From positions 192,001 through 256,000 of the forward strand of contig CBDCQT010000012.1 in assembly GCA_965220745.1 (NCBI GenBank): 64,000 nt of DNA, in the 5' to 3' direction. Of this stretch, positions 1,688 through 42,935 are shown piece after piece; position 1 is the stretch's first letter; every line of letters starts with the position of its first letter. The DNA comes from Alphaproteobacteria bacterium. Its GTDB lineage: Bacteria > Pseudomonadota > Alphaproteobacteria > UBA828. A program made the translations under genes and the position numbers. The notes beneath the pieces were generated by a model. That model worked only from the letters and a program-made list of their open reading frames with translations. It was not told the origin of the DNA and made no database searches.

Positions 1688-2153
1688 GCAGTTCCTTTAC
1701 CGCGAGGTTCGCCTGCTGAGCGAGCTTCGCCTCGAGGAATGGCTCGAGCTCTTCACCGACGACGCCCGCTACTGGATGCCCGCGCGCGAGACGGTGGACG
1801 GGCAATCCGACGCCGTGGCCGCCGATGGCGAAATGGCCTTCTTCGACGACGACAAGGCCTTTCTCGCCGCCCGGATCGAGCGCCTGCGCTCCTCGCTGGC
1901 CCATGCGGAACAGCCGCCTTCTCGGATGCGCTATTTCGTCTCGAACGTGGAGATCGAGGAGGCGGACGATGACGAGCTCGACGTGCGCTGCAACCTGCTC
2001 GTCTACCAGTCGCGCCTGGAGCGCACGGAAGTGCTGTATGTCGGGCGCCGCGAGGACCGTCTTCGCCCTGACGGCGGCTCGTGGCGCATCGCGCAGCGCA
2101 AGGTTATCCTCGACCAGACGCTGATCCCTCGGACCATGTCGACGTTTTTCTGA
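1656..2153 (+). CDS. Ring-hydroxylating oxygenase, beta subunit
   Basis: [12 protein letters not shown]...[24 protein letters not shown] and GRREDRLR...[12 protein letters not shown] pattern; overlaps the alpha subunit 3' end. Start uncertain (GTG 1656 or ATG 1632). Confidence 0.92.
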
Positions 2154-2194
2154 TGTCCAGCTCATAGCGCCGCAGTGCCTTAGTGGAGTAGCTC

Positions 2195-4261
2195 ATGCCC
2201 CGCGATCCCCGTTTCGACGTTCTTTTCGAGCCCGTCCAACTCGGCCCCGTAACGGCGCGCAACCGCTTCTTCCAAGTGCCGCACTGCAGCGGCATGGGCC
2301 ACCTGCTGCCGCGCTCCGATGCTGCCATGCGAAGCATGAAGGCCGAGGGCGGATGGGCCGTGGTCTGCACCGAGCAGTGCTCGTTCCACCCCCATGCCGA
2401 GGCAGCCCCCTATCCCGAGACGAAGCTTTGGGACCAAGACGACGTCATCCGCATGCGGCATTGGACCGATACGATCCACGCCCACGGCGCGCTCGCCGGC
2501 ACCGAAATCGTCAGCAATGCCTCTGCGCTCGCCAACTACTACAGCCGCGAGATCCCGCTCGGGCCGTCGCACACGCCGGTGACCTACAGCCCCGATCCGG
2601 TGCAGGCGCGCGCCATGGACCTGGACGACATCCGCGAGTTTCGCCGCTGGCACCGCGACGGGATGTTGCGGGCCAGGGATGCGGGCTTCGATCTGGTCTA
2701 CGTCTATTGCGCCCATGACATCGCCATGCCGATGGATTTCCTCTCCCGGCGCCGCAACCGGCGGACGGACGAGTACGGCGGCCCTTTGGAGAACCGTGTG
2801 CGGCTCCTGCGCGAGCTGCTTGAAGACACCGTGGAAGCCGTGGGCGGCAGCATGGCGATCGGGCTCCGGTTCGCCACCGACGAGCTCCTGGGCAAGGACG
2901 GTATCACCTGGGAGGACGAGGGCTGCAAGGTGGTCGAGATGCTCGCCGACCTGCCCGATTTCTGGGATGTGAACGTCAGCGACTGGACCCACGATTCCGC
3001 GAGCTCGCGCTTCACCTCGGAGGGCTATCAGGAGCCTTACATCGCGTTCGTGAAGGGCATTGTGAAGAAGCCCGTCATCACCGTCGGTCGCTACACCTCG
3101 CCCGAGACCATGCTTTCGCTGATCACGCGGGGGATTGCCGACTTCGTCGGCTGCGCCCGTCCGTCGATCGCCGATCCCTTCATCCCCCGCAAGATCGAGG
3201 AAGGGCGGCTCGACGACATCCGCGAATGCATTGGCTGCAATATCTGCGTGACCGGGCAACACATGAAGACCCCCATGCGTTGCACGCAGAACCCGACCGT
3301 GGGCGAGGAGTGGCGCCGCGGCTGGCATCCGGAGAAGATCAAACCCAAGGGCTCCGACTCATCGGTGCTCGTGGTGGGCGCCGGGCCGGCGGGCCTGGAA
3401 TGCGCGCTCGCGCTGGGGCAACGCGGTTACCAGGTCGGGCTCGCCGAGGCCTCGCGCGAGCTGGGCGGGCGTGTCACCCACGAAGCCGCTTTGCCCGGCC
3501 TCTCCGAATGGGCGCGCGTGCGCGACTACCGCACCTATCAGATCGAGAAGCTGCACGAGTTAGTCGAGGTCTTCCGCGAGAGCGAGATGACGGCCGAGAC
3601 GGTGCTCGAAGCCGGCTACCGGCACGTCGCCGTCGCCACCGGTGCCCGCTGGCGCCAGGACGGCATCGGCCGCACGCATACGGCAGCATCGATTCCGGGC
3701 AGCGATGCCGCGCATGTGCTCACACCCGACGACCTCTTCGCCGGCGCCGCGCCGGCGTCCCCGGTCGTGGTGTTCGATGACGATTGCCACTACATGGGTG
3801 GCTCGATCGCGGAGAAACTGGCCAATGACGGCCTCGCAGTCATTCTCGTGACACCCTCGCCGGTGGTCTCCGCCTGGGCCGAGGAGGCCCTCGAGCAGCA
3901 CGGAATTCAGACCAACCTGGTCAAGATCGGCGTGCAGATCGTCACCAGCCAAAGCCTGACACGGATCGACGCGGGTGGCGTGCAGGTGGAGGGAGTCTAC
4001 GGCGAGGGCGCGCGGACCATCGAGTGCGCCTCCGTCGTGATGGTGACATCGAGGCTGCCGAACGATGCCCTCTACTACGCGCTCAAGGATTCGCCGGAGC
4101 GCCTCGCGGATGCCGGCATCCAATCGGTCAAGCGGATCGGCGATGCCCTCGGCCCCGGACTGATTGCCGCCGCCGTGTGGAGCGGCCACCGCTTCGCCCG
4201 CGAGCTCGACGCGCCGCCGCCCGGCGACGTTCCGTTCAAGCGCGAGCTGGTGGTTGTGTAG
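2195..4261 (+). CDS. Histamine/trimethylamine dehydrogenase-family iron-sulfur flavoprotein (paralogue 1, histamine-dehydrogenase-like)
   Basis: NRFFQVPHC (Cys for 6-S-cysteinyl-FMN), KAEGGWAVVCTEQ, YVYCAH, [4Fe-4S] motif ECIGCNIC...RCTQNP, dinucleotide motif VVGAGPAG. Confidence 0.92.
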   Translation: MPRDPRFDVLFEPVQLGPVTARNRFFQVPHCSGMGHLLPRSDAAMRSMKAEGGWAVVCTEQCSFHPHAEAAPYPETKLWDQDDVIRMRHWTDTIHAHGALAGTEIVSNASALANYYSREIPLGPSHTPVTYSPDPVQARAMDLDDIREFRRWHRDGMLRARDAGFDLVYVYCAHDIAMPMDFLSRRRNRRTDEYGGPLENRVRLLRELLEDTVEAVGGSMAIGLRFATDELLGKDGITWEDEGCKVVEMLADLPDFWDVNVSDWTHDSASSRFTSEGYQEPYIAFVKGIVKKPVITVGRYTSPETMLSLITRGIADFVGCARPSIADPFIPRKIEEGRLDDIRECIGCNICVTGQHMKTPMRCTQNPTVGEEWRRGWHPEKIKPKGSDSSVLVVGAGPAGLECALALGQRGYQVGLAEASRELGGRVTHEAALPGLSEWARVRDYRTYQIEKLHELVEVFRESEMTAETVLEAGYRHVAVATGARWRQDGIGRTHTAASIPGSDAAHVLTPDDLFAGAAPASPVVVFDDDCHYMGGSIAEKLANDGLAVILVTPSPVVSAWAEEALEQHGIQTNLVKIGVQIVTSQSLTRIDAGGVQVEGVYGEGARTIECASVVMVTSRLPNDALYYALKDSPERLADAGIQSVKRIGDALGPGLIAAAVWSGHRFARELDAPPPGDVPFKRELVVV

Positions 4262-5882: not shown

Positions 5883-6785
5883 TCAGTGCCGGCTCGACTC
5901 GCCAAGTACCGCCGTCTTGAAGAGCGTGCTGTCGTCAACATACTCGCCGCCCTCTGACACTGCCGGCATGACGTCGCGGTAGCGATCCTCCAGCACGATG
6001 TGAGGATCGTGCCCCTCGACCCATCCCAGGAATATGTCGTGCAGGTGGTAGCCAATCAGGTGCTGCACGTCTTCGCGCAGGTCTTTTGCCACGGCCGGAG
6101 GGACGGCGAGGTACTGGTTCTCCTCCTGACGCAACCATCCCAGGCTGTAGCCGGTAATCGCGCCGGTGCGCCACTCGTCCTCGGTATTGTTCCGGCCACC
6201 GCCGTGATAGACCGAGCCCAGATAGATCAGGCACGAGCCGCGCGGCATGGCGGCATAGGCTCTCGGGGTGTCGTCGTCGGGATAGGTGTCGTCGTCCCAG
6301 ACATGGCTTCCCAGAACCACGTTGGTGGCGCCGTTCTCGTATGTGAAGTCGGTGAGCGCCCACATCGTGTTGCACAGGCATTGCGGCCCAGGATGGCGGA
6401 AGGGCATCAGTGCGTCGTCGCGGTGGATGATCTGCAGTCCCTGACCGGGGCCGATCCGCACCGCCTGGGTGACGTGAAGCTGGTAGCGTTCGCAGCGCGG
6501 CAGCAGAAGGCGGTCCATCACGCCAAGGATCTGCGGGCACGTGGCAAGCTCTTCGCCGTAGCTCTTGGACTTCGCGACCAGGGAGCTGACCCGCTTCGTC
6601 TTGTTCCCCCAGAACTCGCCCTCACCGTAGTAGGCGCGTGACAGGAAGGGCTCGAGCTCGGTATTGACTCTGTCGATCGCCTCGTCATCGACGACCTGGC
6701 GGTAGATGACGGCACCATCCTCTTCGAGGATCGCCATCGCCTCGTCGGCCGACGCATGCCGGTCGATGGAACGCACTGTGTCCAT
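5883..6785 (-). CDS. Phytanoyl-CoA dioxygenase (PhyH) family Fe(II)/2-oxoglutarate dioxygenase
   Basis: HRDD (HxD) ... YHGGG facial triad; WALTDFTYENGAT and GWLRQEENQYL motifs. Confidence 0.9.
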   Translation of the reverse strand: MDTVRSIDRHASADEAMAILEEDGAVIYRQVVDDEAIDRVNTELEPFLSRAYYGEGEFWGNKTKRVSSLVAKSKSYGEELATCPQILGVMDRLLLPRCERYQLHVTQAVRIGPGQGLQIIHRDDALMPFRHPGPQCLCNTMWALTDFTYENGATNVVLGSHVWDDDTYPDDDTPRAYAAMPRGSCLIYLGSVYHGGGRNNTEDEWRTGAITGYSLGWLRQEENQYLAVPPAVAKDLREDVQHLIGYHLHDIFLGWVEGHDPHIVLEDRYRDVMPAVSEGGEYVDDSTLFKTAVLGESSRH

Positions 6786-6998: not shown

Positions 6999-9077
6999 TC
7001 AAGCGACCGCGCTTTCGAGACGAACGTACTCCACCTTGTAGGGCACGTCGGCGATGGCGCCTGCATCGAGCTCACGGGCGAACCGGTGACCCTCGTAGAC
7101 CGCGTGCTGGATCGTGCCGGCCGCCACGCAGTCGCCGACGCGGGCGAGCGTGGTAATCCCGGCCTTCTCCAGCTTGTCCGGTTCCGCCGCAAGCTCCCGG
7201 TAGAGCGTGTCGTTCGGCAGGCGCGAGGTGGCGAGAACGAGAGACTGATAGCCGAGATGCTGTCGCTTCTCCTCGTGATAGACGTTGTAGATCTCGATGC
7301 TGTTGTCGCCGATGTGGGCGATGTTTTGATCGGTGATCAGCTCGATCCCCATGGAGAGGACCTGGCTCATGATCTTCTCCATCTCCAGGGTGTACTCCGA
7401 CCAGCGCGAGAGCTCCATCAGTGGGGTGACGATGGTCACCTCGTGACCTGCGGCCCGGAGCTTCTCGGCAATGACGCCGCCCATGTAGTAGTGATCGTCG
7501 TCGAACACGACGATGGGACCCTCCAGCGCCTTCCCGTCCATCACGTCATCGGGGGTGAAGACCTTCTTGCCGTCGCTCCCCGGGATCGCATGCGTGTTGG
7601 TGTAGGCGGCGCCGTCGCCGCGCCAGTGCGAGCCGGTCGCGATGACCACGGTCTCGGCGCCGTAGTCGAGCACGTCCTGCATCGATAGGCGCGAGCCCGT
7701 GTGCACCTCGACATTCTTCATCTTCGCGATCTGGCCGACGCGGTAATCGCGCACGCGGCCCCATGCGGCGAGGCCCGGCAGCGCGCTCTCGCGCGACACG
7801 CGTCCGCCCATGTCGGCCTCCGCCTCGACGAGGTGAACCGTGTAGCCCCGCTCTCCGAGCGCGCGTGCACATTCCAACCCGGCCGGGCCGGCGCCGACGA
7901 TGAGTACGCCGTTGTCGGACCCCTTCGCCTCGATCGTCTCCGGGTGCCAGCCACGCCGCCACTCCTCGCCTGCGGTCGGGTTCTGCGTGCAGCGGAACAG
8001 GCTCCCCGTGTTCTCCGAGGCCACGCACATGTTGCAGCCGATACACTCGCGGATGTCGTCGTTCCGTCCCTCTTCGATCTTCTTCGGCAGGAAGGGATCG
8101 GCGATCGAGGGGCGCGCCGCGCCGATGAAGTCCGTGATCCCGCGACCGATCTGGGAGATCATCGTATCCGGCGAGGTGTAGCGCCCGACCGTCACGACCG
8201 GCTTGTCCGTCTTCTGCTTGACGAAGGCGACGTAGGGCTCCTGGAAGGCCTCGTCGGTGAACCGCGACGTGGCGGAATCGTAGGCCCAGTCGCTGATGTT
8301 CACGTCCCAGAGATCGGGCAGGTCGGAGAACATCTCGACCACGGCCTGGCCTTCCTCCTGCCAGGTGATGCCGTGCTCGCCCCGGTTCTCGTCGACCGCG
8401 AATCTCAATGCGACCGCCGCCCGGTCGCCGACGGCCTCCTTGGTGTCCTCCAGAAGCTCGCCGATCAGGCGGGCGCGGTTCTCGACGCTGCCGCCGTACT
8501 CGTCGGTGCGGTGATTGGTGTGGGGCGAGAGAAAGTGCTGCGGCAGAGCGATATCGTGGCCCGCATAGATGTAGACGATGTCGTAGCCCACGTTGACCGC
8601 GCGTTTCGCGGCTTCGACTTGCCAGCGCCGGAACTCGCGAATGTCGGCCTTGTCCATCTCGCGGCCCATGATGGGATCCCAGTTGTAGTGCACCATGTTG
8701 GGCGAGGGACCCAACGGGAACTCCTTCGTCTTGCGGTTGGAGAAGCCGAGCCCGTTATGGACCAGCTCCACGGCGGCGAGCGCACCGTACTCGTGCATGG
8801 TGTCCACCCAGCCGCGAAGCTGCTCCGCGTACTCGTCGTTCCAGAGCCGGCGTTCGCCGTAAGGGGCGGCGCAGGAGCTTGGATGGATGCTGCATTGCTC
8901 CGTGCAAATGACGGCCCAGCCGCCTTCGGCCTTCATGCGCCGATGCGCGACATCGCCGTGGTGCTCGCCGTACCCCATCGCATTGCAGTGGGGCACTTGA
9001 TAGAAGCGGTTCTTGGCGATCTTCGGGCCGATCTTGATCGGCGTGAACAGGATGTCGTAACGGGGATCGCGGGCCAT
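6999..9077 (-). CDS. Histamine/trimethylamine dehydrogenase-family iron-sulfur flavoprotein (paralogue 2, histamine-dehydrogenase-like)
   Basis: MARDPRYDILF start at ATG 9077 after GGGAGG; VPHC, CTEQC, YIYAGH, ECIGCNMC...RCTQNP, GAGPAG. Confidence 0.92.
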   Translation of the reverse strand: MARDPRYDILFTPIKIGPKIAKNRFYQVPHCNAMGYGEHHGDVAHRRMKAEGGWAVICTEQCSIHPSSCAAPYGERRLWNDEYAEQLRGWVDTMHEYGALAAVELVHNGLGFSNRKTKEFPLGPSPNMVHYNWDPIMGREMDKADIREFRRWQVEAAKRAVNVGYDIVYIYAGHDIALPQHFLSPHTNHRTDEYGGSVENRARLIGELLEDTKEAVGDRAAVALRFAVDENRGEHGITWQEEGQAVVEMFSDLPDLWDVNISDWAYDSATSRFTDEAFQEPYVAFVKQKTDKPVVTVGRYTSPDTMISQIGRGITDFIGAARPSIADPFLPKKIEEGRNDDIRECIGCNMCVASENTGSLFRCTQNPTAGEEWRRGWHPETIEAKGSDNGVLIVGAGPAGLECARALGERGYTVHLVEAEADMGGRVSRESALPGLAAWGRVRDYRVGQIAKMKNVEVHTGSRLSMQDVLDYGAETVVIATGSHWRGDGAAYTNTHAIPGSDGKKVFTPDDVMDGKALEGPIVVFDDDHYYMGGVIAEKLRAAGHEVTIVTPLMELSRWSEYTLEMEKIMSQVLSMGIELITDQNIAHIGDNSIEIYNVYHEEKRQHLGYQSLVLATSRLPNDTLYRELAAEPDKLEKAGITTLARVGDCVAAGTIQHAVYEGHRFARELDAGAIADVPYKVEYVRLESAVA

Positions 9078-24010: not shown

Positions 24011-25669
24011 TTAGGTTCCATACTGCACCTCAATACTCCGCTGGTCGGCAAGATCGGGGAACGTCCCTGTTCCGGGCTTCGTCCTGGTTGGTATGGTTGG
24101 CGGTGGATCGGGGATTTGGAACAGGTGTTCGGGTCTGTCGTTGTAGGCGTGTGCGCGCAGCAGCCCGGCCCTGTGCCATCTGTGTACCGTGTCGTCGGAC
24201 CCTCCGAGCCGGTCAGCGGCTTCCAAGGCCGTCAACAGCCCGCGTTCGCGCAGCCGGTCACGGCGGGTCTTGAGAGCGTAGTTGACCCGGACCACCTTCA
24301 CCGATATCGGGTCGAAGGCGTGGCCGTGTCCGGTTCGGTACCCGCGCCGGTTGAGGATCGCTGCGATCTCGCCCTCGGTGTGATCGTTCAACAGCCTGTC
24401 GACCTCGGCGACGACCTCGTCGCTGGTCTTGGTGAGCTGGGAAGGGTGAGGGTCCGGCGTCCAGGTGATCTGTCGGGTCGCGCCGCCGCGCAGGCGCACC
24501 CCGAGGCTCCGCGTGGCCTTGGTCAGGGTCACGTCCTCGATCAGCAGCCGCGCCATCCGCTTGCGCTCGCGGTGCGGCGTCGCCGGATCGTTCCACAGGC
24601 GCGGGAAGTCGCTGGCCAGGGCGAGGATTCGCTCGCGTTGCGCGTCGTCCAACCCCTGGCCCGGTTCGGCGCGGCTGCGCTCGCGCTGGGCCTCGTCGAG
24701 TGCGCGAAGCTTCGCGTTCCACTCCGCCTCCAGCACGTCGGCCACCATCCGGTTGTCGGGATGGGTCTGCATGAACCGCTGGCGGGCCAGGTCGGCTTCC
24801 TCGCGGGCGCGCTGCACCCGCTGGGCGCGCCACAGATCCGCCTCTCCGGCGCGCGCGGCGAGTTCGTCCTGCACCTGCAACGCGACGTCCAGCGTGAGCG
24901 GTGTCATCAGCTCGACCAGCAGCGCGCCGACCGCCCGGTCGATGGCGCCGCCGGATATGCTCTGGCAATTCTCCGCGCTCGCCGTCTCGACCCTTTCGCG
25001 ATTACACAGGTACTGGGGGCTTTGTTGCCCTTTTACGGTTCGGTAGCGCACCGTCATGTTCCTGCCGCACACGCTGCAGATCGCCAGGCCCTGCAGCAGC
25101 GCGGACCCTTCGCGCGGGGCGCCGCGTCGCTCCGCCGCGGCGTGCGCATGGGCATTGTCCCGGAGCTGGCGCTGGTTCTGCTCGAAGCGCTCCCAGGTGA
25201 TGTAGCCCGGGTGGGCATCGCGCAGCAGCACCGTCCATTCCTCTCGCGGAACGCTTCTGGTCTCGACACCGCCGCCGGGACGGCGCCGGCTGCGGCTGCG
25301 CCCGTACGCGAAAGCGCCGGCGTATCGCGGGTTGTGCAGAAGCCCGCACACGCGCGAGAACCTCAGGGGTTTCCAATGCAGTTCACCGCTGTGGAGCCCG
25401 CCTTGAGGACGGTACGGAAACAGCAGCTTCTCGTTGTTGAAATGCCTGACCGTGGCGCTGGCCGAGCCGGTCCGCGTGAAGGTGTCGAATATCAGGCGCA
25501 GACTGTGCTGCACCTGCTCGTCGGGGTCGAGCGCCACGTTGCCGAGCGGGTCGTAGACCAGCCCCACCGGCAGCGACACCTTCAACTCCCCGCGCCTGGC
25601 CTTGGCCAGCACTCCGCCACGCAGCCGGATGCGCATCATGTGCAGCTCCGCTTCCGACATGGTCCCTTT
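24011..25669 (-). pseudogene. Large serine recombinase, C-terminal part (recombinase, zinc-ribbon, coiled-coil and HTH domains)
   Basis: KGTMSEAELH...KARRGEL...LPVGLVYD, LHNPRYAGAFAYGR, HPGYITWE, LLQGLAICSVCG; continues in frame from the 29149-29565 fragment once the RIT is removed. Confidence 0.88.
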
Positions 25670-25731
25670 GAGCCCATATGTAGGACAGCCCGCTATGTCG
25701 GGCAGCATGCGCAACCTACTGTCAACACGAG
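25670..25731 (+). repeat. RIT left inverted repeat
   Basis: 60/62 identical to the reverse complement of 29067-29128; imperfect extension to 25757. Confidence 0.92.
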
Positions 25732-25815
25732 CTTTTTCTCCAAGCTGTCTGACATAATTTTCTCGGTGCGATTCGTCTGACATGACGTCATCTCCACGAG
25801 TACTGGAGGTGAATC

Positions 25816-27060
25816 ATGTTCGAAACTCTCTACAAGGACCCCGCCACCATCGACAGATATCGGCTTGCGCCCCTGTTGGAGGATCGCGAACGGTATCTGT
25901 GCGCCGTGCTCGCCTCGGGTGCGGTCGTTGAGGTCGCACGCCGGGTCGCGCGTGCTCAGCTCGCCCTCATCGATCTGCTGAACCTGCCCGATGCCGACGT
26001 TCCGGTCGATTTTGCGGCGGTAGAGGCGGCTGTTCAGGAGTGGTGTCGGAACGTTCCCGCAGTTTCGGCCGCGAATTTCCGGCGCCATGCCTTTCGCTGG
26101 CTGCGTTTCCTCGGCTGGCTGGAAGAGCCGGTTGGGAATGCCCATCCGCACGCCCGGCAGGTGGAGGCTTTCGCCGCCTGGATGCGGGACGACCGGGGGC
26201 TGTCCGAAGCGACCATCGGCAACTGCTGCTACGAGAGCGACCGTCTCTTTGCCTGGGCAGCAGGCAGGAACCTGATGCTCGCCGACATGACGATCGGCGA
26301 CGTCGACGAGTTCCTTGCCGCGCGGATTGCCGACGGAGGTCTTCGTCGAACGTCCGCGCGCGCCGCGGCCGGGTGTCTGCGCAGCTTTTTCCGTTTCGCC
26401 GAAACGCGGAACTGGTGCCGGTCGGGCATCGCCGGGTGCATCATGCCGCCGCTGGCCTATCCCGACCGACCGGTTCCCAAGGGGTTCGATCACGACGAAG
26501 TCGAGAGGCTGCTCGCCACGACGGAGGGTTCGACCCCGGCAGACGTTGGCGACCGTGCGGTGCTGACGATCCTTGCAACCTGCGGGCTCAGGGCCGGCGA
26601 AGTTGGCGCTCTGCGCGTCGAGGACATCGACTGGGAGCGGGACAAGCTGCGCGTGTTCCGTCCCAAGACCGGCCGAACCGACACCTTCCCGCTCACCCCC
26701 TCCGTCGGCAACGCGTTGATGGACTATCTCCTCAAGGTGCGCCCGGAGGCGGGACGGGAGCGGGCCTTGTTCCTGACGTTGCAGGCTCCGTTCAGGCCGC
26801 TGACGAGCAGCGCCATAGGGATGATCGTCCGCAGCCGCGCGAACCGCCTTGGCATCACCGGCAAGCGCCTGGGCGCCCATGCGCTTCGCCATGCGGCGGC
26901 ACAGCGGCTGGTCGACGAGGGGTGCGGACTCAAGACCGTCGGCGACTTCCTCGGCCATTCCAGCCCGAGCGCGACGGCCGCATACGCAAAGATCGATCTC
27001 GCCTCGCTTCGCCCGGTCGCCGACATCTGCCTGAAGGAGCTGCTCGATGACGCTGCGTGA
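25816..27060 (+). CDS. RIT tyrosine recombinase A
   Basis: CGLRAGEV, RPKTG, HALRH, LGH...AAY catalytic residues; long N-terminal region typical of the first RIT gene. Confidence 0.92.
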   Translation: MFETLYKDPATIDRYRLAPLLEDRERYLCAVLASGAVVEVARRVARAQLALIDLLNLPDADVPVDFAAVEAAVQEWCRNVPAVSAANFRRHAFRWLRFLGWLEEPVGNAHPHARQVEAFAAWMRDDRGLSEATIGNCCYESDRLFAWAAGRNLMLADMTIGDVDEFLAARIADGGLRRTSARAAAGCLRSFFRFAETRNWCRSGIAGCIMPPLAYPDRPVPKGFDHDEVERLLATTEGSTPADVGDRAVLTILATCGLRAGEVGALRVEDIDWERDKLRVFRPKTGRTDTFPLTPSVGNALMDYLLKVRPEAGRERALFLTLQAPFRPLTSSAIGMIVRSRANRLGITGKRLGAHALRHAAAQRLVDEGCGLKTVGDFLGHSSPSATAAYAKIDLASLRPVADICLKELLDDAA

Positions 27061-28036
27061 GGCCGTTGACCGCTATGTTGCGTGGCAGCGCGACCACGGC
27101 GCCAAGTTCCGCTCAAGCGCCGAGACCCTCGATACCTTCTGTCGCCGGATCGGAGAGGACAGGGACTGTGACACGGTGGGCGAGGATGAAGTCCGCCGCT
27201 TCCTTGCCGGCAAGGGGACGCTCACGAGAACACGCGCCGTAAAATACGGAACGCTTGCCGGGTTCTACGGCTTCGCGCTGAGCCGGAGCCATGTGAGTTG
27301 CATGCCCATGCCGCCGCGGGAGGCGGAACCGCGGCCGCCCGAGGTCGCGCCGCCCTTCATCTTCACTCATGAGGAATTGCGGCGCCTGTTCAAGTCGGCA
27401 GGCGGGGGCCGCAGGCGTTGCCTCAAGCTCGATATCGAGACCTTCCGGACATTCCTGCTCCTGCTCTACGGCGCCGGACTGCGCTCCGGAGAAGCGCGGC
27501 GACTGAGCGTGGCGGACGTGGACCTGGACTCCGCGGTGCTCGCGGTGAACGACACGAAGTTCTACAAGAGCCGTCTCGTGCCGGTCGGCGCCGACCTCGC
27601 CGGCATGCTTCGCCGATACGCCGCCATCCGGACACAGCGCCCCCTCCCCGAGGGATCGGCATCCACCTTCCTCGCCTGCCGCGACGGGACGCCGCTGAAA
27701 AAGGCCATCGTACGTCACGCCTTCCATAAGACGCTTCGGGCGGCCGGAATCGAGAACAGAAAACCCGGATGCCGGGCGCCCTGCCTGCATTCGCTGCGCC
27801 ATAGCTTTGCCACCCATCGCCTGACCTCCTGGCATCGCGAGGGGGCCGACGTTCAACGGCTCCTGCCGGCGCTTTCGACCTACCTCGGCCACGGCAGCGT
27901 GGCAGCGACGCAGGTCTACATATCGATGACCCCGGACTTGCTCGACGAGGCCAGCCGCCGGTTCGAGCGCTACGTTGAGCACAACCCAGGCCCGGATGCC
28001 GGGCAGCATCGGAAAGGGGGTACAAGCCATGCCTGA
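27047..28036 (+). CDS. RIT tyrosine recombinase B
   Basis: AGLRSGEA, TKFYKSRLVP, HSLRHSFA, LPALSTYLGH...TQVY. Confidence 0.92.
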   Translation: MTLREAVDRYVAWQRDHGAKFRSSAETLDTFCRRIGEDRDCDTVGEDEVRRFLAGKGTLTRTRAVKYGTLAGFYGFALSRSHVSCMPMPPREAEPRPPEVAPPFIFTHEELRRLFKSAGGGRRRCLKLDIETFRTFLLLLYGAGLRSGEARRLSVADVDLDSAVLAVNDTKFYKSRLVPVGADLAGMLRRYAAIRTQRPLPEGSASTFLACRDGTPLKKAIVRHAFHKTLRAAGIENRKPGCRAPCLHSLRHSFATHRLTSWHREGADVQRLLPALSTYLGHGSVAATQVYISMTPDLLDEASRRFERYVEHNPGPDAGQHRKGGTSHA

Positions 28037-29030
28037 ACGCAGCTCCGCTCTCGGCACATGGATCAAGCGCTTCCTCTTGGAGTATCTCCCGACCGAGCGC
28101 AATCTGGCGGTCAATACCTTGAAGAGTTATCGCGACGGCCTGACGCTGCTGTTGCCCTTCGTGGCCGAGCGCTGCGGCAAGGCAGTGGAGCGGCTCGCGG
28201 TCGAAGATCTGTCCGCCGACCGCGTGACGGCCTTTCTCGGCCACCTGGAACGGGAACGGGGCTGCTCGGCGCAGACCCGCAACCTGCGCCTTACAGCGAT
28301 CCGCTCCTTCGCCCGCTACGTCGCGGTGCGCGACGCCGCACTTGTCGAATGGGCCGGCAGCATCCGCGCCATTCCGCTCAAGAAAACGGTGCGGCCCCGG
28401 ATCGTCTGGCTGTCGGCGGAGAACATGGACGCCATGATCGCCGGGCCGGACAGGCGCACCGTAGCAGGGCGGGTCGAGCACGCCCTTCTCCTGTTCCTCT
28501 ACAACACCGGGGCGAGAGCCTCCGAGGCGGCGGGACTGCAGGTGGAGGATCTGCATCTCCCGGAACGCACGGGCGAAAACGCGCGTGCAACGATCCATGG
28601 CAAGGGAGGAAAGGTCCGCGTCACGCCGATCTGGACGAGCACCGCCAAGGCCCTCGCCGCTCTCTCCAGGGACCGCCCACCCGGCTGCGGGAGCATCTTC
28701 TGGAGCCGGCATCGCAAGCCCTACACCCGGCATGGAATCATCGAACTCGTGGAGCGTGCCGCCGCTCGCGTGCCGGAACTCAAGGGGCAGAAGATCACGC
28801 CGCACGTGCTGCGGCACAGCTGCGCCTGTCACCTGCTTCGCTCCGGCATCGACATCAACACCATTCGTGCCTGGCTCGGTCACGTCTCCCTCGCGACCAC
28901 CAACATCTACGCCGAGGTCGATCTCAAGGCGAAGGAAGAGGCGATGAAATCCACCTGCCCCGGCGATCCCGGGGACAAGCCGCGATGGAAGGCACGAGGT
29001 GGCCTGCTCGAACAGCTGAAGGCAATCTGA
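28029..29030 (+). CDS. RIT tyrosine recombinase C
   Basis: YLPTERNLAVNTLKSYRD, TRNLRLTAIRSF, TGARASE, HGKGGK, HVLRHS, WLGHVSLATTNIY; ATG 28029. Confidence 0.92.
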   Translation: MPERSSALGTWIKRFLLEYLPTERNLAVNTLKSYRDGLTLLLPFVAERCGKAVERLAVEDLSADRVTAFLGHLERERGCSAQTRNLRLTAIRSFARYVAVRDAALVEWAGSIRAIPLKKTVRPRIVWLSAENMDAMIAGPDRRTVAGRVEHALLLFLYNTGARASEAAGLQVEDLHLPERTGENARATIHGKGGKVRVTPIWTSTAKALAALSRDRPPGCGSIFWSRHRKPYTRHGIIELVERAAARVPELKGQKITPHVLRHSCACHLLRSGIDINTIRAWLGHVSLATTNIYAEVDLKAKEEAMKSTCPGDPGDKPRWKARGGLLEQLKAI

Positions 29031-29066
29031 ACGACAAATATTATGTCGGGCAGTCCGGCGAATAAT

Positions 29067-29128
29067 CTCGTGTTGACAGTGGGTTGCGCATGCTGCCCGA
29101 CATAGCGGGCTGTACTACATATGGGCTC
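29067..29128 (-). repeat. RIT right inverted repeat
   Basis: Reverse complement of 25670-25731 with 2 mismatches. Confidence 0.92.
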
Positions 29129-29154
29129 TTATGTGGGCCATGACATAAGAGCCC
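29123..29154. repeat. Terminal palindrome at the RIT right end
   Basis: GGGCTCTTATGT-gggccatg-ACATAAGAGCCC: perfect 12-bp arms with an 8-bp spacer. Confidence 0.85.
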
Positions 29155-29565
29155 GAGCAGTAGCCGATCATTGAAGTCGCCGGGGTCGTAGACGCCGTCC
29201 TCGTCGAGGATCAGCGTCTCGCTCAGGGCGCAGATCTCAAGCAGGCGGTGCCACTCGGTAGAGTTGCGCGCGAGGCGGCTGACCTCGAGCCCGAGCACGA
29301 TCCCGGCCCGGCCCATGCCGACCTCGGCGACCAGGCGCTGGAATCCCTCGCGGTCCCTGTCGGCGCCGGAGAGACCGAGATCGCTGTCGATCACGACGAT
29401 GCTCTCGCTCGGCCAGCCCAGCGCCACCGCCCGCTCCCGCAGCGCGTACTGGCGGCGCGTGCTCTCGCCATGCTCGAACACCTGACGCGGGGTGGACTGA
29501 CGCACGTACAGGTAGGCATCGCGGCTCAGGTGGTTCGCGGCCACCTTCTGGTGAGCGGGGTTCAT
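29149..29565 (-). pseudogene. Large serine recombinase, N-terminal catalytic (resolvase) domain
   Basis: AYLYVRQST (catalytic Ser), DLGLSG, REGFQRL, EVSRLARN; cut by the RIT after DRLLLGL. The reconstructed protein is 691 aa. Confidence 0.9.
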
Positions 29566-30506: not shown

Positions 30507-30854
30507 TTACACATGCGGCAAAATCTCCTTGGCAGTCTCCGCCCCGTCGTCGCTCTCCCGCATAGTGCGGGCGTCCCCGTCCAGGCTGTCCAGCAATGCC
30601 GCCAGCGCAAGCAGGTCCGAGACGCGGAACGCCGACCGGCCCGCCGCTACCCTCACAAACGGATCCGCCGCCGCGGCGCTCGTAAACGCCTGCCGAATCG
30701 TCCGCAGCGCTCCATCGTCAGCCGTGTAATGAACCAGCCCCACCCCCAGCACCGACGTGGTCTCGATCAGTTCGAACTCACGTCCGTGAAGCGGATGAAA
30801 CGGGTGCGTCACCCGGACGAGCTGCCGCTCGACGCATCCGAGGGGTGCACTTGA
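30507..30854 (-). CDS. DUF5372 (Y4bD/Y4pK-like) ORF, frame open up to the element end
   Basis: VTHPFHPLHGREFEL...DPFVRVAAGRSAFRVSDLLAL motif; only a GTG (30812) without an obvious RBS; no stop between it and the junction at 30855. Confidence 0.7.
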   Translation of the reverse strand, partial: SSAPLGCVERQLVRVTHPFHPLHGREFELIETTSVLGVGLVHYTADDGALRTIRQAFTSAAAADPFVRVAAGRSAFRVSDLLALAALLDSLDGDARTMRESDDGAETAKEILPHV

Positions 30855-30856
30855 AT

Positions 30857-31400
30857 GCCCAGTCCCAGTGCCCGCACAATGGTTGCACCTATGCGCTCTG
30901 CCGCTGCCTCGATCTCACGGTCGCCGACATGGGCGTAGCGCAGCGTCATGCTCGGCCGCTTGTGGCCAAGCAGGCGCGAGACGACCGGGAGCGGGATGCC
31001 CTGCAGCACGGCGTGGCTCGCGAATGTGTGGCGCAGGTCGTGCAGGCGCACGTCCTCGATCCCGGCTTCCTTGCGCACCGAGTACCAGAGCGGCAAGTCG
31101 GAGCACAGTGGCCGGTCCGGATTGAGCGACGAGGGAAAGACGAAGGCGCTGCCCGACCGCGGCTGCCGCTCCAAGATGGCGCGGGCCGGCGCATTCAGCA
31201 GCACCTGTCTCGGTCCGGTCTTGGCGTCGACCAGATTGAGCGCATCTCCATCGACGTCCTGCCAGCGCAGGGTCACGATCTCGCTCTTGCGGCAGCCAGT
31301 CAGCAGCAGCAGGCGGATGATGTCGGCCTGTTGCGCGCGCGAGATCCGGTCTCCGGCATGGCGGTCCAGCTCGCGGTGAAGGCGGCGGATCTGCGCGGCA
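30857..31400 (-). pseudogene. Tyrosine integrase, catalytic domain only
   Basis: LLLLTGCRKSEI, DAKTG, HDLRHTFAS, LLGH...TLRYAH; no recognisable N-terminal domains; 3' end interrupted by the serine-recombinase element. Confidence 0.8.
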
Positions 31401-31980
31401 CGGTCGACGGCCTTCTCGCCAGGGACGAACGCTGGGCGTTCAACCGGAATCGGGTCGAGGCATTCCTCGTGCGGGCCGCGGAGGCCGAGCGTGCGCGGAA
31501 CGCTCTGACGCAGATGGACGTCACGACTTCGTCGTTCGAGGAGCGTCTGCAGGCCCGGCAGGACCATATCATTCTCGCCTCAACAATGCCTTAGCCTGTC
31601 CAACCGCCCCAAAGGGAGCATTGATTCCATTGGGGAAAATCGTGCGATGTCCAACCCAAATCCGGGGCGGGCCGATGAGCGTGCGCGCGATGGCCTGGGC
31701 CTTCGGGTGTCGAGCCAGCGCTCGATTTCGGCTGCAGTGGCCTCCTTGTCGCCAGTATAGATGCCGTTCAGCCGGGGTGCGGTGCCGGAGGCCTGCCCAC
31801 CGATCTGATCGGCGGCGCAGGCCCGCAACGAAAAGCTGAGTTTCTGGTGATTGAAAACTCCAGCGAGTCTCGAAGACCGACAAAAATGCTCTAGGATACG
31901 CACCTGCCAAGCGGCGAGGCCCGTCGTGCCCGCCGCGACATGACCGGTGAGCAACCTTCGCAGGAGAGGGAGAGAAAACC

Positions 31981-38921: not shown

Positions 38922-41900
38922 TCACATGCTCCACGACCGCCCCCTGTCGCGGCTCTTGGACTGGGCCTGGCGCTGCGGCGAGAGTCTGTCCATCCGCGAC
39001 ACCGAGTCGGCCACGGGTTCCACGAAGTCTTCTCCGCGCTTGAGGTGGGCGCCGTAGGTCCCGGGATCGTCGAGGATCGCCCTGCCCTCCCGGCGCAGGC
39101 GCTCGTTCCGCTCTAGCCAGTTCGCATAGGCGGGCAGGGTGGCGATGCGCACGTCGAGCGCCCTGGCGCGGTGCCTCAGCTTGTGGAAGCGCTTCCAGTG
39201 CTCGTCGGAGGCCTTGAGCCAGTTCTGAACGTGGGTGCGCGTCCGGACGTGCGCGAGGTGACCGTCGACCATAGCTTGAAGTTGCCGGCGCGGCTCGGCA
39301 GGAACCCGCTCGTTCCCGGCGAACTCGGCGATGCGCTCGATCAGCGCGGCGGCGCCGTCGAGATCGTAGGGGGAGATGCCGGCCCGTTCCGCCCGTGCGC
39401 GATGCAGGTTCCAGTTGAGGCGCAGGAGCCGGTATTCAACTCCCGAAAGCGGTGACGGCACCGTGTTGTTCGCCTGACCTGTGGCTGCGGGGCGCTTCGG
39501 CGGGTGGGCCGGGGGGCGAGCCTCCGTCTCGACCGACTTCTCCGCGGAACGTGCCTCCTGTGCTTCCTGCGAGCGCTCCGGTTGCGACCGCCGGACTTGC
39601 GCGGCCTTGCCGGCGACAGAGCGGCGGTATCTGCCCGCCCGGGCATACACGTCCCCGAGCTCATCGATCTCGCCCTGGCCGATGCCGGCGCGCTCGGCCA
39701 GCAGGCGCTCGAAGACCTGCGGCCTGGCACGGAACGTTTCTGCCTGCCTCATCAGTGCGCCGTGGCGGTCGAGGGTCTCGCGGAAAGCCGGGCTCAGCGC
39801 AACCGCATCGCCCTCGCTGCGCGTCCTCTCCCGAAGCGAATCCCACGCTGCCAGTACGTGCGTACGCTCGGCGGCGAATGCGTCCACCGCCGGGCCGTGG
39901 CGCCAGCCGGCAACCGCGTGGCGGATTTCTTCGGCAATGCGCACGATCGCGTTGTCATTCGCAGCGGCGTGGGTCTGGGTCTCGGTCGCCTCTCCACTCC
40001 CGTCGCTGGGACCGTCATGCCCTCTACCGTTCGATCGGCTACCGCCGTTGCCGACGTCCGTCCGCGCACCTTCGTGCGCATCCCGCCACGCGTCGTCCGA
40101 GACGTAGTCAAGCGCCGCTTCCTTGGGCTCGGACCGCGACCAGCGCTCCGCCAGATACGCACGCACATCTGAGTCCATCACGGGCAACTCGGCCTGATCC
40201 TCCGGTCGGCGCTCTGCGATGTCGAGGGTGATCGGCGAGCGGTTGACGTAGATGTCGATGCCCTCGCGATGCCGGGTAGCCGCCGGATAGATCGTCTCCC
40301 GTGCGGGCCGGTCGTCCACCAGCAGGAAGGCCCAGTCCACCGTCAGCCCCTGGGCGGAGGCGATGGTCATCGCATAGCCGTAGTCGAGGCGGATGTTGTC
40401 GTGCCAGTCGCGGATCTCGTCGTGGCGGAACGAGACCCTGCGCCCGTCGTCGGTCCGGGCCGTAACGTGGATGGGGGGCTCGTCCCACGAGCGCTTCGGC
40501 TCGGAACCGTCGATGTCGGCCGCCGTCTCCCGCCCGCCGGCTCGCCGGTTCCGGGCCTTGCGCGACACCGGGGTGTCTTTCGCGGGCCGCACTTCGAGGT
40601 CTTCCACCGTGACCACGGTGCCGTTGAAGAGCTGCTTCTCCCAATGAGTCGCGCCGATGCGGATGCGGTCGCCCACCGCGATCTCCAGCGGCTCCGTCAC
40701 CCGCCCGTCCAGGTCCCGGCTCACCTGGATGACCGCGCGCTTCGCGTTGGGGGTTTGCGCCAGTACCCGCTCCCGCATCAGCCAGGACAGCGCCCGCGCC
40801 TCGGCGCGCGTGCGCGCGAGCACGACGGTGGACGTCTCGGGCTCCGCACGCACATGCCGTTCCCAGTCCTCAACGAGCTTGGTCAGGGTCTTCTCTTCGT
40901 CGTGGTGGAGATGGAGCCGGTTGCGCAGATGCCAGGCCTCGATCGCCTGCTCCGCCTCCCCGTCCCTGAGCGCTTCCGAGACCGCCACCTGCCACGGCGT
41001 GAACAGGGGTTTCTTCTCCATCGCCTCGTACTCGGCGAGGATCGCGTCGCGCTCCTGCGGATTGGTCAGGCCCGCCCGGAAGCGCGCCTGCTCCGGCGTC
41101 TCCTTGTGCACGTGGACCAGCACGTCCTCGAGGTCCGCCTTCTGGCGCCTGATGCGGTCCACGCGAATGCTGCCCGCGACGTCCCGGATCAGTCGCAGTC
41201 CGGGCCCCGCCTCCACCGGCTGCTGCTGCCGGGTGTCGCCCGCGAACACCACCTTGGCGCCGTGGCGCTCGGAGAGCTGCAGGATGTGATGGGCCTGCCG
41301 CGTCGACAGCATCCCCGCCTCGTCCACCACGATCAGCGTATTGCGACCGATCTCCACCTGGCCCTTTGCGGCAAGCTTGAGGAGCTTGTCGACGCAGTAG
41401 GTGCGCGCATCACAATCATCGCCCAACGCCACCGCCGTCCGCCATGCGACGGCTGTCGGTACGATCTCGTAGCCGTGCTCCTTGTGAAGGTCCGTGATGG
41501 GTCTGAGCGTGGTGGTCTTGCCCGAGCCTGCCGCGCCCTCGATCACCGCGACACGTCCGTCCTTTATCGTGGCATGACGGATGGCCAGCGACTGCTCCTG
41601 GCTCAGCGGGTAGCCCTCCGCCAGCAGGGTGTCCACCTTCTCCTTGACCGCCTCTTCCGGCAGGCCGTGGCCGGTATCGGCGGCCATGGCTTGCGTCATG
41701 TCCTTGACCGCCTGTTCCAGTCCCAGGTTGTGGCGGGTAGAATAGACTTCCGTGTGGACCATGCCGGCCCTGGATTCGGCCGTGGGCTTCTTCGGCTCAA
41801 GCCGCTCGATCTCCGGGTTGCGGCGCAGACGCTCGATGGCCGTCCCCACCGCCTCCCGACCCATCAGCCTTGCCGCCGCGTTCGCCGCCGCCTCCACCAT

Positions 41901-42935
41901 GTCCGGGCGCCGGAATACCGCCTCTTCCCGGGCCAGATGGGCGGGAAGATCGTCGAGCCTCTCCGTCACTTCGCGGATGGCCTCCCGGCCGATCTTCACG
42001 TCATGGCCGGTGAGAGCGGCGATCAATTCCTCCCTCTCGACGAAGCCCTCGGCCTCGCTGCGCCAGCGCCGGTGCCTCACCTCCGGATCGTTGTCGTGCG
42101 ACTTCCCTTCGCGCGTGAGCTTGTTCACCCCCGCCATGCGCGATGCGTTGCCCAATGACAGGATGCCCAATTCCCCGGCCCGCGCGACGATCGCCTTTCT
42201 GCGCTTCGACCAGAACGCCTGCAAATCCTCCGGCATCCCTTCTATGCGCGTGAACTCCGCGTTGGGACCGTACTGCTGCATCCTGACGCCCAGACTCTGT
42301 TGCAGCTCCCACGCCACATAGGCGCGGAACAGGGCGCCCGCCGCCTTCTTCCAGCTGTAGACCGGGTACTGGTGATGCGCCCGCCACTTGCCGTCCTCGC
42401 GGGTGCGCGCGATGTTGAAGATCGTGCAGTGGACGTGAAGCTGCGGGTCGTTCTCACGGCTGGTGCCGTGGACGAAGGTCGCGCCCATCAGGTCCGCTTC
42501 CACCGGCCGAGCGACCCCTTTCTCGCTGACGCGGGTGTAGCTGCAATGTCTCAGCACCGTGTCTTCGAGCGCCGCCCGCGCTGAGGCCACCGCCATCGTC
42601 TCGATCCGCTCGCGCATCTCCGGCTCTGCGATGGCCCACAGCGCCGAGACGCTCTTGTCCACCGAGAACGTCATGTCGCCGCCGGGGGAGCGGTCCGGAT
42701 TGCCGGCGCGCTGCACCAGCTTGCCCGATCCGTCCGGGGCGAAGCCCGAGTAGAGGCGGTGGAAGTGGCCGGAATCTACCTTGCCGCCATCTTCAAGGCC
42801 GAACAGGTTCTTGGGGTTGAACCAGGTGCCGTCCGGCTCCTCTCCCGCCGTGTAGTACTCGTTGGGGTGCCGGAACGAGCGCTGGCTCTCCAGGTAGTAC
42901 TCGGCAGATGCCATCTGCCCGATGGTCGCTACCAT
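38922..42935 (-). CDS. MOB_F (TrwC-type) relaxase-helicase
   Basis: N-terminal YY...YY tyrosines, DMTFSVDKSVS, HGTSRENDPQLHVH, WSKRR; RecD-like helicase GAAGSGKTT, VDEAGM, GDTRQ, YAMTIASAQGLT. Confidence 0.93.
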   Translation of the reverse strand: MVATIGQMASAEYYLESQRSFRHPNEYYTAGEEPDGTWFNPKNLFGLEDGGKVDSGHFHRLYSGFAPDGSGKLVQRAGNPDRSPGGDMTFSVDKSVSALWAIAEPEMRERIETMAVASARAALEDTVLRHCSYTRVSEKGVARPVEADLMGATFVHGTSRENDPQLHVHCTIFNIARTREDGKWRAHHQYPVYSWKKAAGALFRAYVAWELQQSLGVRMQQYGPNAEFTRIEGMPEDLQAFWSKRRKAIVARAGELGILSLGNASRMAGVNKLTREGKSHDNDPEVRHRRWRSEAEGFVEREELIAALTGHDVKIGREAIREVTERLDDLPAHLAREEAVFRRPDMVEAAANAAARLMGREAVGTAIERLRRNPEIERLEPKKPTAESRAGMVHTEVYSTRHNLGLEQAVKDMTQAMAADTGHGLPEEAVKEKVDTLLAEGYPLSQEQSLAIRHATIKDGRVAVIEGAAGSGKTTTLRPITDLHKEHGYEIVPTAVAWRTAVALGDDCDARTYCVDKLLKLAAKGQVEIGRNTLIVVDEAGMLSTRQAHHILQLSERHGAKVVFAGDTRQQQPVEAGPGLRLIRDVAGSIRVDRIRRQKADLEDVLVHVHKETPEQARFRAGLTNPQERDAILAEYEAMEKKPLFTPWQVAVSEALRDGEAEQAIEAWHLRNRLHLHHDEEKTLTKLVEDWERHVRAEPETSTVVLARTRAEARALSWLMRERVLAQTPNAKRAVIQVSRDLDGRVTEPLEIAVGDRIRIGATHWEKQLFNGTVVTVEDLEVRPAKDTPVSRKARNRRAGGRETAADIDGSEPKRSWDEPPIHVTARTDDGRRVSFRHDEIRDWHDNIRLDYGYAMTIASAQGLTVDWAFLLVDDRPARETIYPAATRHREGIDIYVNRSPITLDIAERRPEDQAELPVMDSDVRAYLAERWSRSEPKEAALDYVSDDAWRDAHEGARTDVGNGGSRSNGRGHDGPSDGSGEATETQTHAAANDNAIVRIAEEIRHAVAGWRHGPAVDAFAAERTHVLAAWDSLRERTRSEGDAVALSPAFRETLDRHGALMRQAETFRARPQVFERLLAERAGIGQGEIDELGDVYARAGRYRRSVAGKAAQVRRSQPERSQEAQEARSAEKSVETEARPPAHPPKRPAATGQANNTVPSPLSGVEYRLLRLNWNLHRARAERAGISPYDLDGAAALIERIAEFAGNERVPAEPRRQLQAMVDGHLAHVRTRTHVQNWLKASDEHWKRFHKLRHRARALDVRIATLPAYANWLERNERLRREGRAILDDPGTYGAHLKRGEDFVEPVADSVSRMDRLSPQRQAQSKSRDRGRSWSM

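Follow-up and report, generated by a model that had tools for sequence, protein, structure and literature searches.

RIT elements are common on the plasmids and islands of many bacteria, and no reproduction of their movement is known. The sites loxP and FRT (both 13-8-13) and dif (11-6-11) consist of inverted binding elements around a spacer of 6-8 bp. Tn916, which moves with one integrase and Xis, tolerates unlike overlaps and takes along six bases of its previous site, which end up at either end of the element. At CTX attP(+) and the integron attC sites, inverted sequences fold into a recombination site, and one strand exchange by Xer-like or integron-type recombinases is followed by replication.

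RIT elements have been described as three adjacent, overlapping tyrosine recombinase genes between imperfect inverted repeats, about 3.5 kb in length and with several identical copies in one genome (PMC3414803, PMC2864759). The CH34 genome has one copy in an IS66 tnpA gene and one in radC (PMC2864759). RitA with two core-binding domains and RitC with an extra C-terminal helix have been given as marks of the subfamily (PMC8138268). Van Houdt 2012 noted a palindrome close to ritC as well as 'sequence variation at the ends', and the available part of that paper names no convincing binding sites (PMC3414803). A table in a 2023 review gives both the target specificity and the movement of RIT elements as untested; according to the same source, the SE and Tn554 elements are site-selective, and a new insertion has on one side the 6-bp spacer from their joined ends and on the other the target's own 6 bp, with no duplication (PMC10214605). 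Nielsen 2017 reported RIT DNA that was protected from exonuclease, without read pairs across a circle junction, and proposed hairpin molecules (PMC5737581). The accessible portions of the RIT literature searched, with Ricker 2013 and Van Houdt 2009 outside it and possibly bearing on our claims, give no account of a 6-20-6 tail, a tail on either side of the element, carried spacers or a fixed target polarity.

The window, i.e. the whole stretch of 64,000 nucleotides that was analysed, contains ritA, ritB and ritC on one strand inside the gene of a large serine recombinase (Table 1). All three Rit proteins contain the Phage_integrase domain (PF00589), and inspection of the sequences reveals HxxR ... 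H ... Y near the C-terminus of each; RitA gives a single PF02899 match in Pfam. Their best NCBIfam models are XerC and XerD, with scores below the cut-offs, and a Rit-specific model is absent from NCBIfam. The overlap of ritB and ritC reads ATGCCTGA, with the likely ATG start of ritC 8 bp inside the end of ritB (the longest ORF begins at 27975), and the ORFs of ritA and ritB overlap by 14 bp. With the adjoining hexamers included, the terminal inverted repeat measures 92 nt and is 88% complementary (25670-25761 / 29037-29128); there is no fourth gene between the repeats, which enclose only the three recombinases of 329-414 aa. Three adjacent same-strand recombinase genes with short overlaps, imperfect inverted repeats and a length of about 3.5 kb mark the element as a RIT in its genes and repeats. 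Genomes with several identical copies were seen among relatives only, the window having one copy, and a near-identity search of the plasmid collection with the whole element gave no match.

In the vicinity of the RIT, ABC transporter and catabolic genes surround a further, solitary tyrosine recombinase ORF (30809-31567, minus strand) and a TrwC-type relaxase-helicase (38922-42935, minus strand). The window probably belongs to a plasmid or an integrative conjugative element; no drug-resistance gene was seen between 13.7 and 43 kb of the window.

Table 1. Positions of the RIT element, its right-end tail and the interrupted gene in the window
Feature	Position	Strand	Remarks
C-terminal part of serine recombinase	24011-25675	-	Pfam Recombinase and Zn_ribbon_recom; begins GLKGTMSEAELH
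Far hexamer t (minus-strand GGGCTC, Gly-Leu codons)	25670-25675	-	target's own by analogy with relatives
Left terminal inverted repeat	25676-25761	+	13-nt motif at 25676, 25693 (forward), 25745 (reverse)
ritA, tyrosine recombinase, 414 aa	25816-27060	+	PF00589 3.8e-29, PF02899; HALRH...LGH...Y
ritB, tyrosine recombinase, 329 aa	27047-28036	+	PF00589 6.4e-22; HSLRH...LGH...Y
ritC, tyrosine recombinase	28029-29030	+	PF00589 1.9e-27, PF02899; HVLRH...LGH...Y
Right terminal inverted repeat	29037-29122	+	13-nt motif at 29041 (forward), 29093, 29110 (reverse)
Internal core-type site	29110-29141	+	motif copy, 6-bp spacer, motif copy (13-6-13); spans 29117-29134
Inner hexamer GGGCTC	29123-29128	+	putative element-borne spacer; differs between otherwise identical loci
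20-bp near-palindrome, two half-sites	29129-29148	.	degenerate in window, perfect in many relatives
Tail-side hexamer c (minus-strand GGGCTC)	29149-29154	-	element-carried by analogy; equals t in window
N-terminal part of serine recombinase, Resolvase domain	29155-29565 (ORF to 29847)	-	PF00239 7.5e-13; ends ...NDRLLLGL

The serine recombinase gene is split at the Gly-Leu codons of the motif NDRLLLGLKG, the start of its N-terminal part being placed at the first plausible Met, at about 29565. Among the matches listed for the C-terminal part, 120 homologues were compared: 87 have it beyond residue 100, all with just one dipeptide in front of KG (GL in 81, GF in 4, GM in 2), 22 lie outside the search pattern, and 11 were matched near their start. 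Five of these 11 are N-terminally shortened forms that also have the single dipeptide, and the other six are C-terminal halves read out of the RIT repeat (...TTY followed by GLKG). As the intact homologues have a single dipeptide before KG, the inserted DNA amounts to 3,479 bp (25676-29154), including 26 bases beyond the right repeat. The six read-out halves are protein clusters of the public collection (P0128, P0129, P0144, P0162, P0173 and P0222; 572-602 aa, without a Resolvase domain) with a false N-terminus from the RIT repeat (...LPDIAGCxTY followed by GLKG). This suggests that RIT-split copies of the serine recombinase are common and are annotated as whole proteins. In the window, the ORF tool wrongly extends the C-terminal half into the RIT repeat, as far as 25783 (24011-25783, minus strand).

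Read directly, the left junction consists of GAGCCC (25670-25675) and ATATGT (25676-25681), and the right end of ACATAT (29117-29122), GGGCTC (29123-29128), TTATGT (29129-29134), gggccatg (29135-29142), ACATAA (29143-29148) and GAGCCC (29149-29154). These are exactly the junctions given in the original prediction, which had pointed out that the hexamer occurs three times, as two direct copies and one inverted internal copy; its predicted circle junction, ACATAA-GAGCCC-ATATGT, is indeed the exact reverse complement of 29117-29134. The core-site-like motif that it saw there corresponds to two inverted copies of a 13-nt motif, wTATGT-4 nt-CAk, around a 6-bp spacer, and apart from the copies in the terminal repeats (Table 1) this motif is found in forward orientation at 29129. 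The pattern ACATAW-N6-WTATGT has 1 match in the 64-kb window versus 0 in 100 shuffles. The 12-bp arms GGGCTCTTATGT and ACATAAGAGCCC are predicted to fold into a hairpin as single-stranded DNA (-14.3 kcal/mol, z = -3.2). As the layout recurs in 30 of 30 resolved complete elements (see below), the right-end pattern is not a product of chance, and we consider it probable that these 38 bases are an asymmetric, one-sided tail of the RIT transposon, with a palindrome between two 6-base spacers. The three hexamers of the window are identical, and the carried and native roles are thus assigned there by analogy.

A genome scan with RitC as the query yielded 53 loci. Motif scans were applied to the window and L001-L029 and then, for TATGT/GATGT-type tails, to all 53 loci, and a generic palindrome finder was run on L016-L058. 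In addition, a tblastn search of the plasmid collection with RitB gave 342 records, of which five were taken for analysis, and a near-identity search with the S. meliloti copy gave 122 records, 45 of them nearly full length, of which twelve were analysed. In total 30 complete elements of several RIT lineages were resolved, the window included, with RitC 53-93% identical in the genome loci and RitB 30-34% identical in the plasmid examples. Many of the relatives are metagenome-assembled contigs, and the evidence throughout is comparative and drawn from integrated copies.

When the elements are oriented tail first, all 30 have the same layout: N-flank, tail-side hexamer (c, 6 bp), palindrome (20 bp), inner hexamer (6 bp; its reverse complement is denoted i), repeat-body-repeat, far hexamer (t, 6 bp) and C-flank. 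In 20 elements the tail is found on the ritA side, in 9, including the window, on the ritC side, and one is left without assignment. The palindromes are lineage-specific and often perfect (CTATGTGGGGCCCCACATAG, AGATGTTGCATGCAACATCT, TTATGCCGCGCGCGGCATAA, TCACGTTGAGCTCAACGTGA), and the repeats are 97-100% complementary in relatives versus 88% in the window. Co-variation of the palindrome half-sites with their own repeat termini amounts to a weak trend (7.3/10 with own versus 6.4/10 with other termini) and was not used as evidence.

Several loci stand outside these counts: two have a variant geometry, of which L055 fits only with an IS91-like insertion between the inner spacer and the palindrome, and L056 only with an 18-bp palindrome and 8-nt spacers; in L054 (Mesorhizobium) no palindrome was found in the 8.9 kb searched, and an IS91-like element abuts the repeat and hexamer; in L067 and L073 the tail is missing or cut; and L001, L003, L004, L012 and L028 are affected by contig ends or interruption. 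The palindrome finder gave no matches in L017, L018 and L024-L027, nor in L030-L053, which encode distant recombinases (RitC at most 41% identical) and many of which are probably not RITs.

The relatives also offer a number of further observations. On two plasmids of different classes (L054:6038-8600, Mesorhizobium; L055:6050-8664, Paraburkholderia), the RIT repeat and inner hexamer are directly followed by a transposase gene of the IS91 family, accompanied by a small integrase gene of its own, and this element may insert preferentially at RIT tails. L008 and L014, RIT copies at different sites with tails on opposite sides, have in common a 2.1-kb insertion 131 bp inside the left repeat region (1676-3805 in both), from which it follows that a 5.6-kb RIT with a passenger has nonetheless moved. 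In L015 the inner spacer has 7 nt (3683-3689, with an extra T), and c and t have 6 nt and otherwise equal it. The palindrome of a second, distant RIT lineage (RitC 36% identical), CTATGTCTT(C/G)CAAGACATAG, occurs in one genome near or inside first-lineage copies (L029:3663-3682, L012:10254-10273), where one RIT may be nested in another. In L001 the tail and the N-terminal half of the target gene are present on both sides as a 927-bp inverted duplication (468-1394 / 7045-7971, 99.35% identical), and L067 is its mirror, with the tail missing and C-side flanks on both sides. L001 and L067 have the appearance of paired outcomes of a recombination event between two RIT copies, by which the host replicon would be rearranged; for L001, a metagenome contig, misassembly is a possible alternative.

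The three hexamers vary between elements: all are equal in 7 of the 30, including the window, only c and i in 4, only c and t in 6, only i and t in 2, and all differ in 11. Among the first 20 elements the mean number of mismatches out of six is 0.70 for c-i, 0.85 for c-t and 0.90 for i-t, versus 3.06 when c is set against the i of a different element (lowest value among 2,000 shuffles, 2.15). The variation of the spacers between elements, and their covariation within an element, which far exceeds chance, are therefore as anticipated in the original prediction. The two sites it proposed would appear as an inverted pair once the ends are joined, but their identity is not general (c = i in 11/30), and in the rhizobial family of 11 elements c never equals i and c differs from t by 0-4 bases. 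The loci L064 and L065 have their flanks and t in common, and of the 4,108 bases in their alignment 4,102 agree; the six differences fall at position 515, in c, and at 539-542 and 544, in the inner hexamer. The spacers are the sole variable positions between these otherwise identical loci.

For 9 of 22 carried hexamers, some other locus has the same sequence as its far or native hexamer. In the frame of the target, c, i and t of the rhizobial family correspond to Thr/Ser/Ala-Ala/Cys/Val-type codon pairs, with the exception of one c (Thr-Pro) and one t (Met-Ala), and the carried hexamers of the window lineage to Gly-Leu/Met/Ile/Val-type pairs, except for one Glu-Leu and one Gly-Phe. The carried hexamers thus vary like target codons, for which an element-encoded sequence would have no reason, and this indicates that the spacers record earlier targets rather than setting the choice. 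Of the earlier proposal that the spacer sets or records the target, only the second half is retained, c being unlike t in 17 of 30 elements, by up to four of the six bases.

In a few cases it can be decided which flanking hexamer is native. L007 lies in a helicase gene, whose product reads ...YEDGPF-EH before the RIT and QS-QGKAVTAW after it, EH being the dipeptide of the far hexamer. Among the matches listed, 120 intact homologues (about 723 aa, about 80% identical) were compared; 115 contain the motif, all 115 with one xH dipeptide, which is EH in 95 and QS in none. In L007, then, the native copy is the far hexamer, the one on the tail side is foreign to the target, and there is no duplication. 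In L002, c encodes Glu-Leu where the 87 motif-bearing intact serine recombinases all begin with Gly, and the far hexamer is consistent with this invariant Gly; in L010, c gives DRLLL-GM, found in 0 of the 87. Five copies in one genome, with bodies 98.9-100% identical, all have GGACTG as c, and their t are GGACTG, GGGCTG, GGGCTG, GGTTTG and GTGTTC. As in Tn554/SE, L007, L002, L010 and this five-copy genome thus show carried bases on one side, the target's own on the other and no duplication, the side bias drawing on three protein-level cases, one genome by parsimony and one locus pair. Taken together with L064 and L065, these decided cases in relatives indicate that the flanking hexamers are one element-borne and one native copy, and the target duplication assumed in the original prediction has to be abandoned. 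The same applies to targeting by the internal hexamer, for which the prediction had itself named a constant internal hexamer beside varying targets as the contrary outcome: GGACTG is internal in three of the five copies, and the native hexamer varies.

Two loci are apparent exceptions. The inner hexamer of L057, AGTGCC, is the native hexamer in both intact S. meliloti sister IS copies, and the N-flank of L057 matches the IS copies that have it; an S. numidicum IS copy has ACCGCC, which is the far hexamer of L057 and the inner hexamer of L072. As to which hexamer is native in L057, the intact IS copies thus give a mixed answer. The closest intact IS copy to L072 is L061, and its hexamer is found in L072 at the inner position and not at the far one. 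In appearance, L057 and L072 are sites of one kind that differ by an interchange of i and t and by inversion of the body, and as exceptions to the rule of a native far hexamer they would call for a further event, for example an inversion or an exchange with another copy. About 190 bp upstream of its tail, L057 also has an inverted, 86% identical copy of the target hexamer and C-flank (2375-2431 / 6027-6083), which comes from a third IS66 variant and whose hexamer, ACGGCC, is one base off the c of L057.

In the window lineage 9 of 11 complete insertions are at the same Gly-Leu/Met/Ile codons of serine recombinase genes, the exceptions being the helicase gene (L007) and a lipoprotein-like ORF (L014), and the N-flanks of L001, L003, L004, L012 and L028 likewise read ...LG-x. 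In all the serine recombinase insertions it is the N-terminal half that borders on the tail. A second lineage (L016, L022, L023) occupies IS66-type transposase genes at a C-x-x-H motif, with the hexamer at the same codon position and its sequence unrelated each time, and the rhizobial lineage the motif ...LI(E/M)-TA-KLNxxDP of IS66-type transposases, with the tail bordering on the upstream portion of the gene in all 11 elements. The unrelated hexamers at the same codon position speak for recognition of the flanks, and the choice of target thus depends mainly on these and has a polarity. The body occurs in both orientations relative to the tail, both among the 98.9-100% identical copies of one genome and at orthologous sites of two genomes, where the flanks are 86-88% identical and co-linear and the bodies are 99.7% identical and inverted. 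The inversion of the body that had been predicted is thereby borne out as far as the two orientations go, but inversion in place is a plausible event only.

The arrangement is best explained by insertion via either of two inverted core sites that have the palindrome in common, in a manner similar to Tn554/SE, and we hold this explanation to be the likely one. The mobile unit would consist of c, the 20-bp palindrome of two recombinase half-sites, the inner spacer and repeat-ritABC-repeat. Joining of its ends would bring the palindrome between the repeat termini and create two inverted core-type sites, each made up of a repeat terminus, a spacer and a palindrome half. One of the two would be used, with strand exchange at the 5' edge of the spacer: the element strand would be cut between the repeat terminus and the spacer and the target strand 5' of its hexamer, which would leave the element's spacer beside the palindrome and the target's six bases beside the opposite repeat, without duplication. 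The exchanged strand would read N-c-palindrome-inner spacer-body-t-C, the arrangement observed. The choice of core site, which amounts to a choice of strand, would set the orientation of the body, with use of the other site inverting it. Completion by the second strand would give the opposite placement after replication; this was identified in none of the few cases that are decidable, most elements being indecisive, and its absence there favors a fixed first strand exchange resolved by replication, as the accessible part of the 2023 review describes for SE (PMC10214605).

New spacers would be acquired from earlier targets at excision, at inversion or by exchange between copies, and bottom-strand or complete excision would pass t to the element. 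A full exchange between the inner and far sites would invert the body and, as worked out by hand, leave daughters with (c, t, t) and (c, i, i), which would account for the class with i = t (L010, L064) and, when c = i, would offer a route to three equal hexamers. We thus infer a circular intermediate, an exchange of a single pair of strands that is resolved by replication, and a renewal of the spacers. The more specific proposal, in which one strand of a palindrome-jointed intermediate inserts via either of the mirror-image core sites and the spacers form a two-entry log of previous targets, is put forward tentatively, as a possibility that may well prove wrong. If true, the spacers alone would tell how, and in which direction, RITs have jumped in the past, both inside a genome and from one genome to another, and the three recombinases would divide the work among repeat termini, palindrome and target flanks.

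A version of this best explanation, rather than its opposite, is that one strand of the element is excised, folds and is inserted, as in CTX attP(+) and integron attC, with the repeats, spacers and palindrome forming one long hairpin. The two 18-bp sites would then be the strands of a single core site, one exchange would be followed by replication, and use of either strand would set the orientation. The joined ends would form a near-perfect palindrome, with repeats 88% complementary here and 97-100% in relatives and with many perfect centers, and the predicted product of a single exchange, N, c-palindrome-inner spacer-body, t-C, is exactly the one observed. The exonuclease-protected RIT DNA of Nielsen 2017, for which hairpins were proposed in the absence of circle-junction read pairs (PMC5737581, available in part), also agrees with it. 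However, c is unlike i in 19 of 30 elements and in all 11 rhizobial ones, so that the folded site would often contain a bubble of 1-5 bases. Moreover, a double-stranded circle with a palindromic junction would likewise evade read-pair detection, since the sequence across the junction is almost that of the integrated end on the opposite strand; this near-palindromic junction would explain why circle junctions were missed in read-pair data. We regard insertion of a folded strand as rather unlikely, if worth keeping in mind.

Clearly less probable is a classical integrase reaction, in which a double-stranded circle would recombine through a matching 6-bp overlap that is later seen as a direct repeat, with the spacer setting the target. 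The window itself, with its identical hexamers, would suit such a reaction, as would the 7 of 30 elements with all hexamers equal and the 13 of 30 with c = t. Yet the rule that the spacer must match its partner, on which the original prediction had relied, does not hold for the 17 of 30 elements in which c and t disagree, at up to four of six positions. Furthermore, the tail-side hexamer of L007 is foreign to its target, the 98.9-100% identical copies of one genome entered sites with four different hexamers, and the three IS66-type targets with the same codon position have unrelated hexamers.

It is very improbable that the palindrome and hexamers lie outside the RIT, as the remnant of an earlier element, a miniature element or a part of the target. 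The half-sites resemble repeat termini and could possibly be two abutted ends. Against this, the 6-20-6 geometry is present in 30 of 30 complete elements at unrelated targets (serine recombinase, helicase, lipoprotein-like ORF and IS66-type transposases at two motifs), the intact homologues of the targets are without the palindrome, and its sequence follows the RIT lineage. A role of the hairpin in terminating transcription of ritC or regulating it as a stem, suggested by a 12-bp stem 90 nt past the ritC stop, is the least credible and was rejected, since a simple terminator scan of 25400-29400 does not list the hairpin and the palindrome lies upstream of ritA in 20 of 29 assigned relatives.

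The end structure has consequences for annotation and experiment alike. It gives RIT elements exact borders for annotation, one being a repeat terminus and the other the tail together with its two spacers, and it offers a concrete mechanism that is open to testing. It also gives target rules: insertion in these lineages is at set codons within conserved motifs, and the genes hit encode recombinases and transposases of other mobile elements, the named targets being LLG-L/M-KG of serine recombinases and the two IS66-type motifs. The spacers would constitute a natural record that could be used to trace jumps.

The site in the window, with its 13-6-13 structure, resembles the cores of Cre, Flp and XerCD, but the RIT spacer is probably not a fixed part of the site. 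With CTX attP(+) and attC the RIT elements have in common the potential to fold and the geometry of the product; they are known from integrated copies and, in contrast to those systems, bring along three enzymes of their own. Like Tn916, they appear to carry six bases and to tolerate mismatches, but the decidable RIT cases all place the carried bases on the palindrome side. The published RIT elements have the same genes, repeats, length and multiple copies, and a model for the ends is absent from the accessible parts of the papers concerned (PMC3414803, PMC2864759). According to the available part of the 2023 review (PMC10214605), Tn554/SE and RIT are alike in using tyrosine recombinases, in the apparent lack of duplication and in having the carried and the target's 6 bp on opposite sides. 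The proteins are different: Tn554/SE encode one large and one ordinary recombinase together with TnpC/Srap, a set that is not found in the window element, whereas RIT elements encode three Xer-like recombinases. Finally, Tn554/SE have one joint site, whereas the RIT ends would form two inverted sites with a common palindrome and two spacers, and their bodies are found in both orientations.
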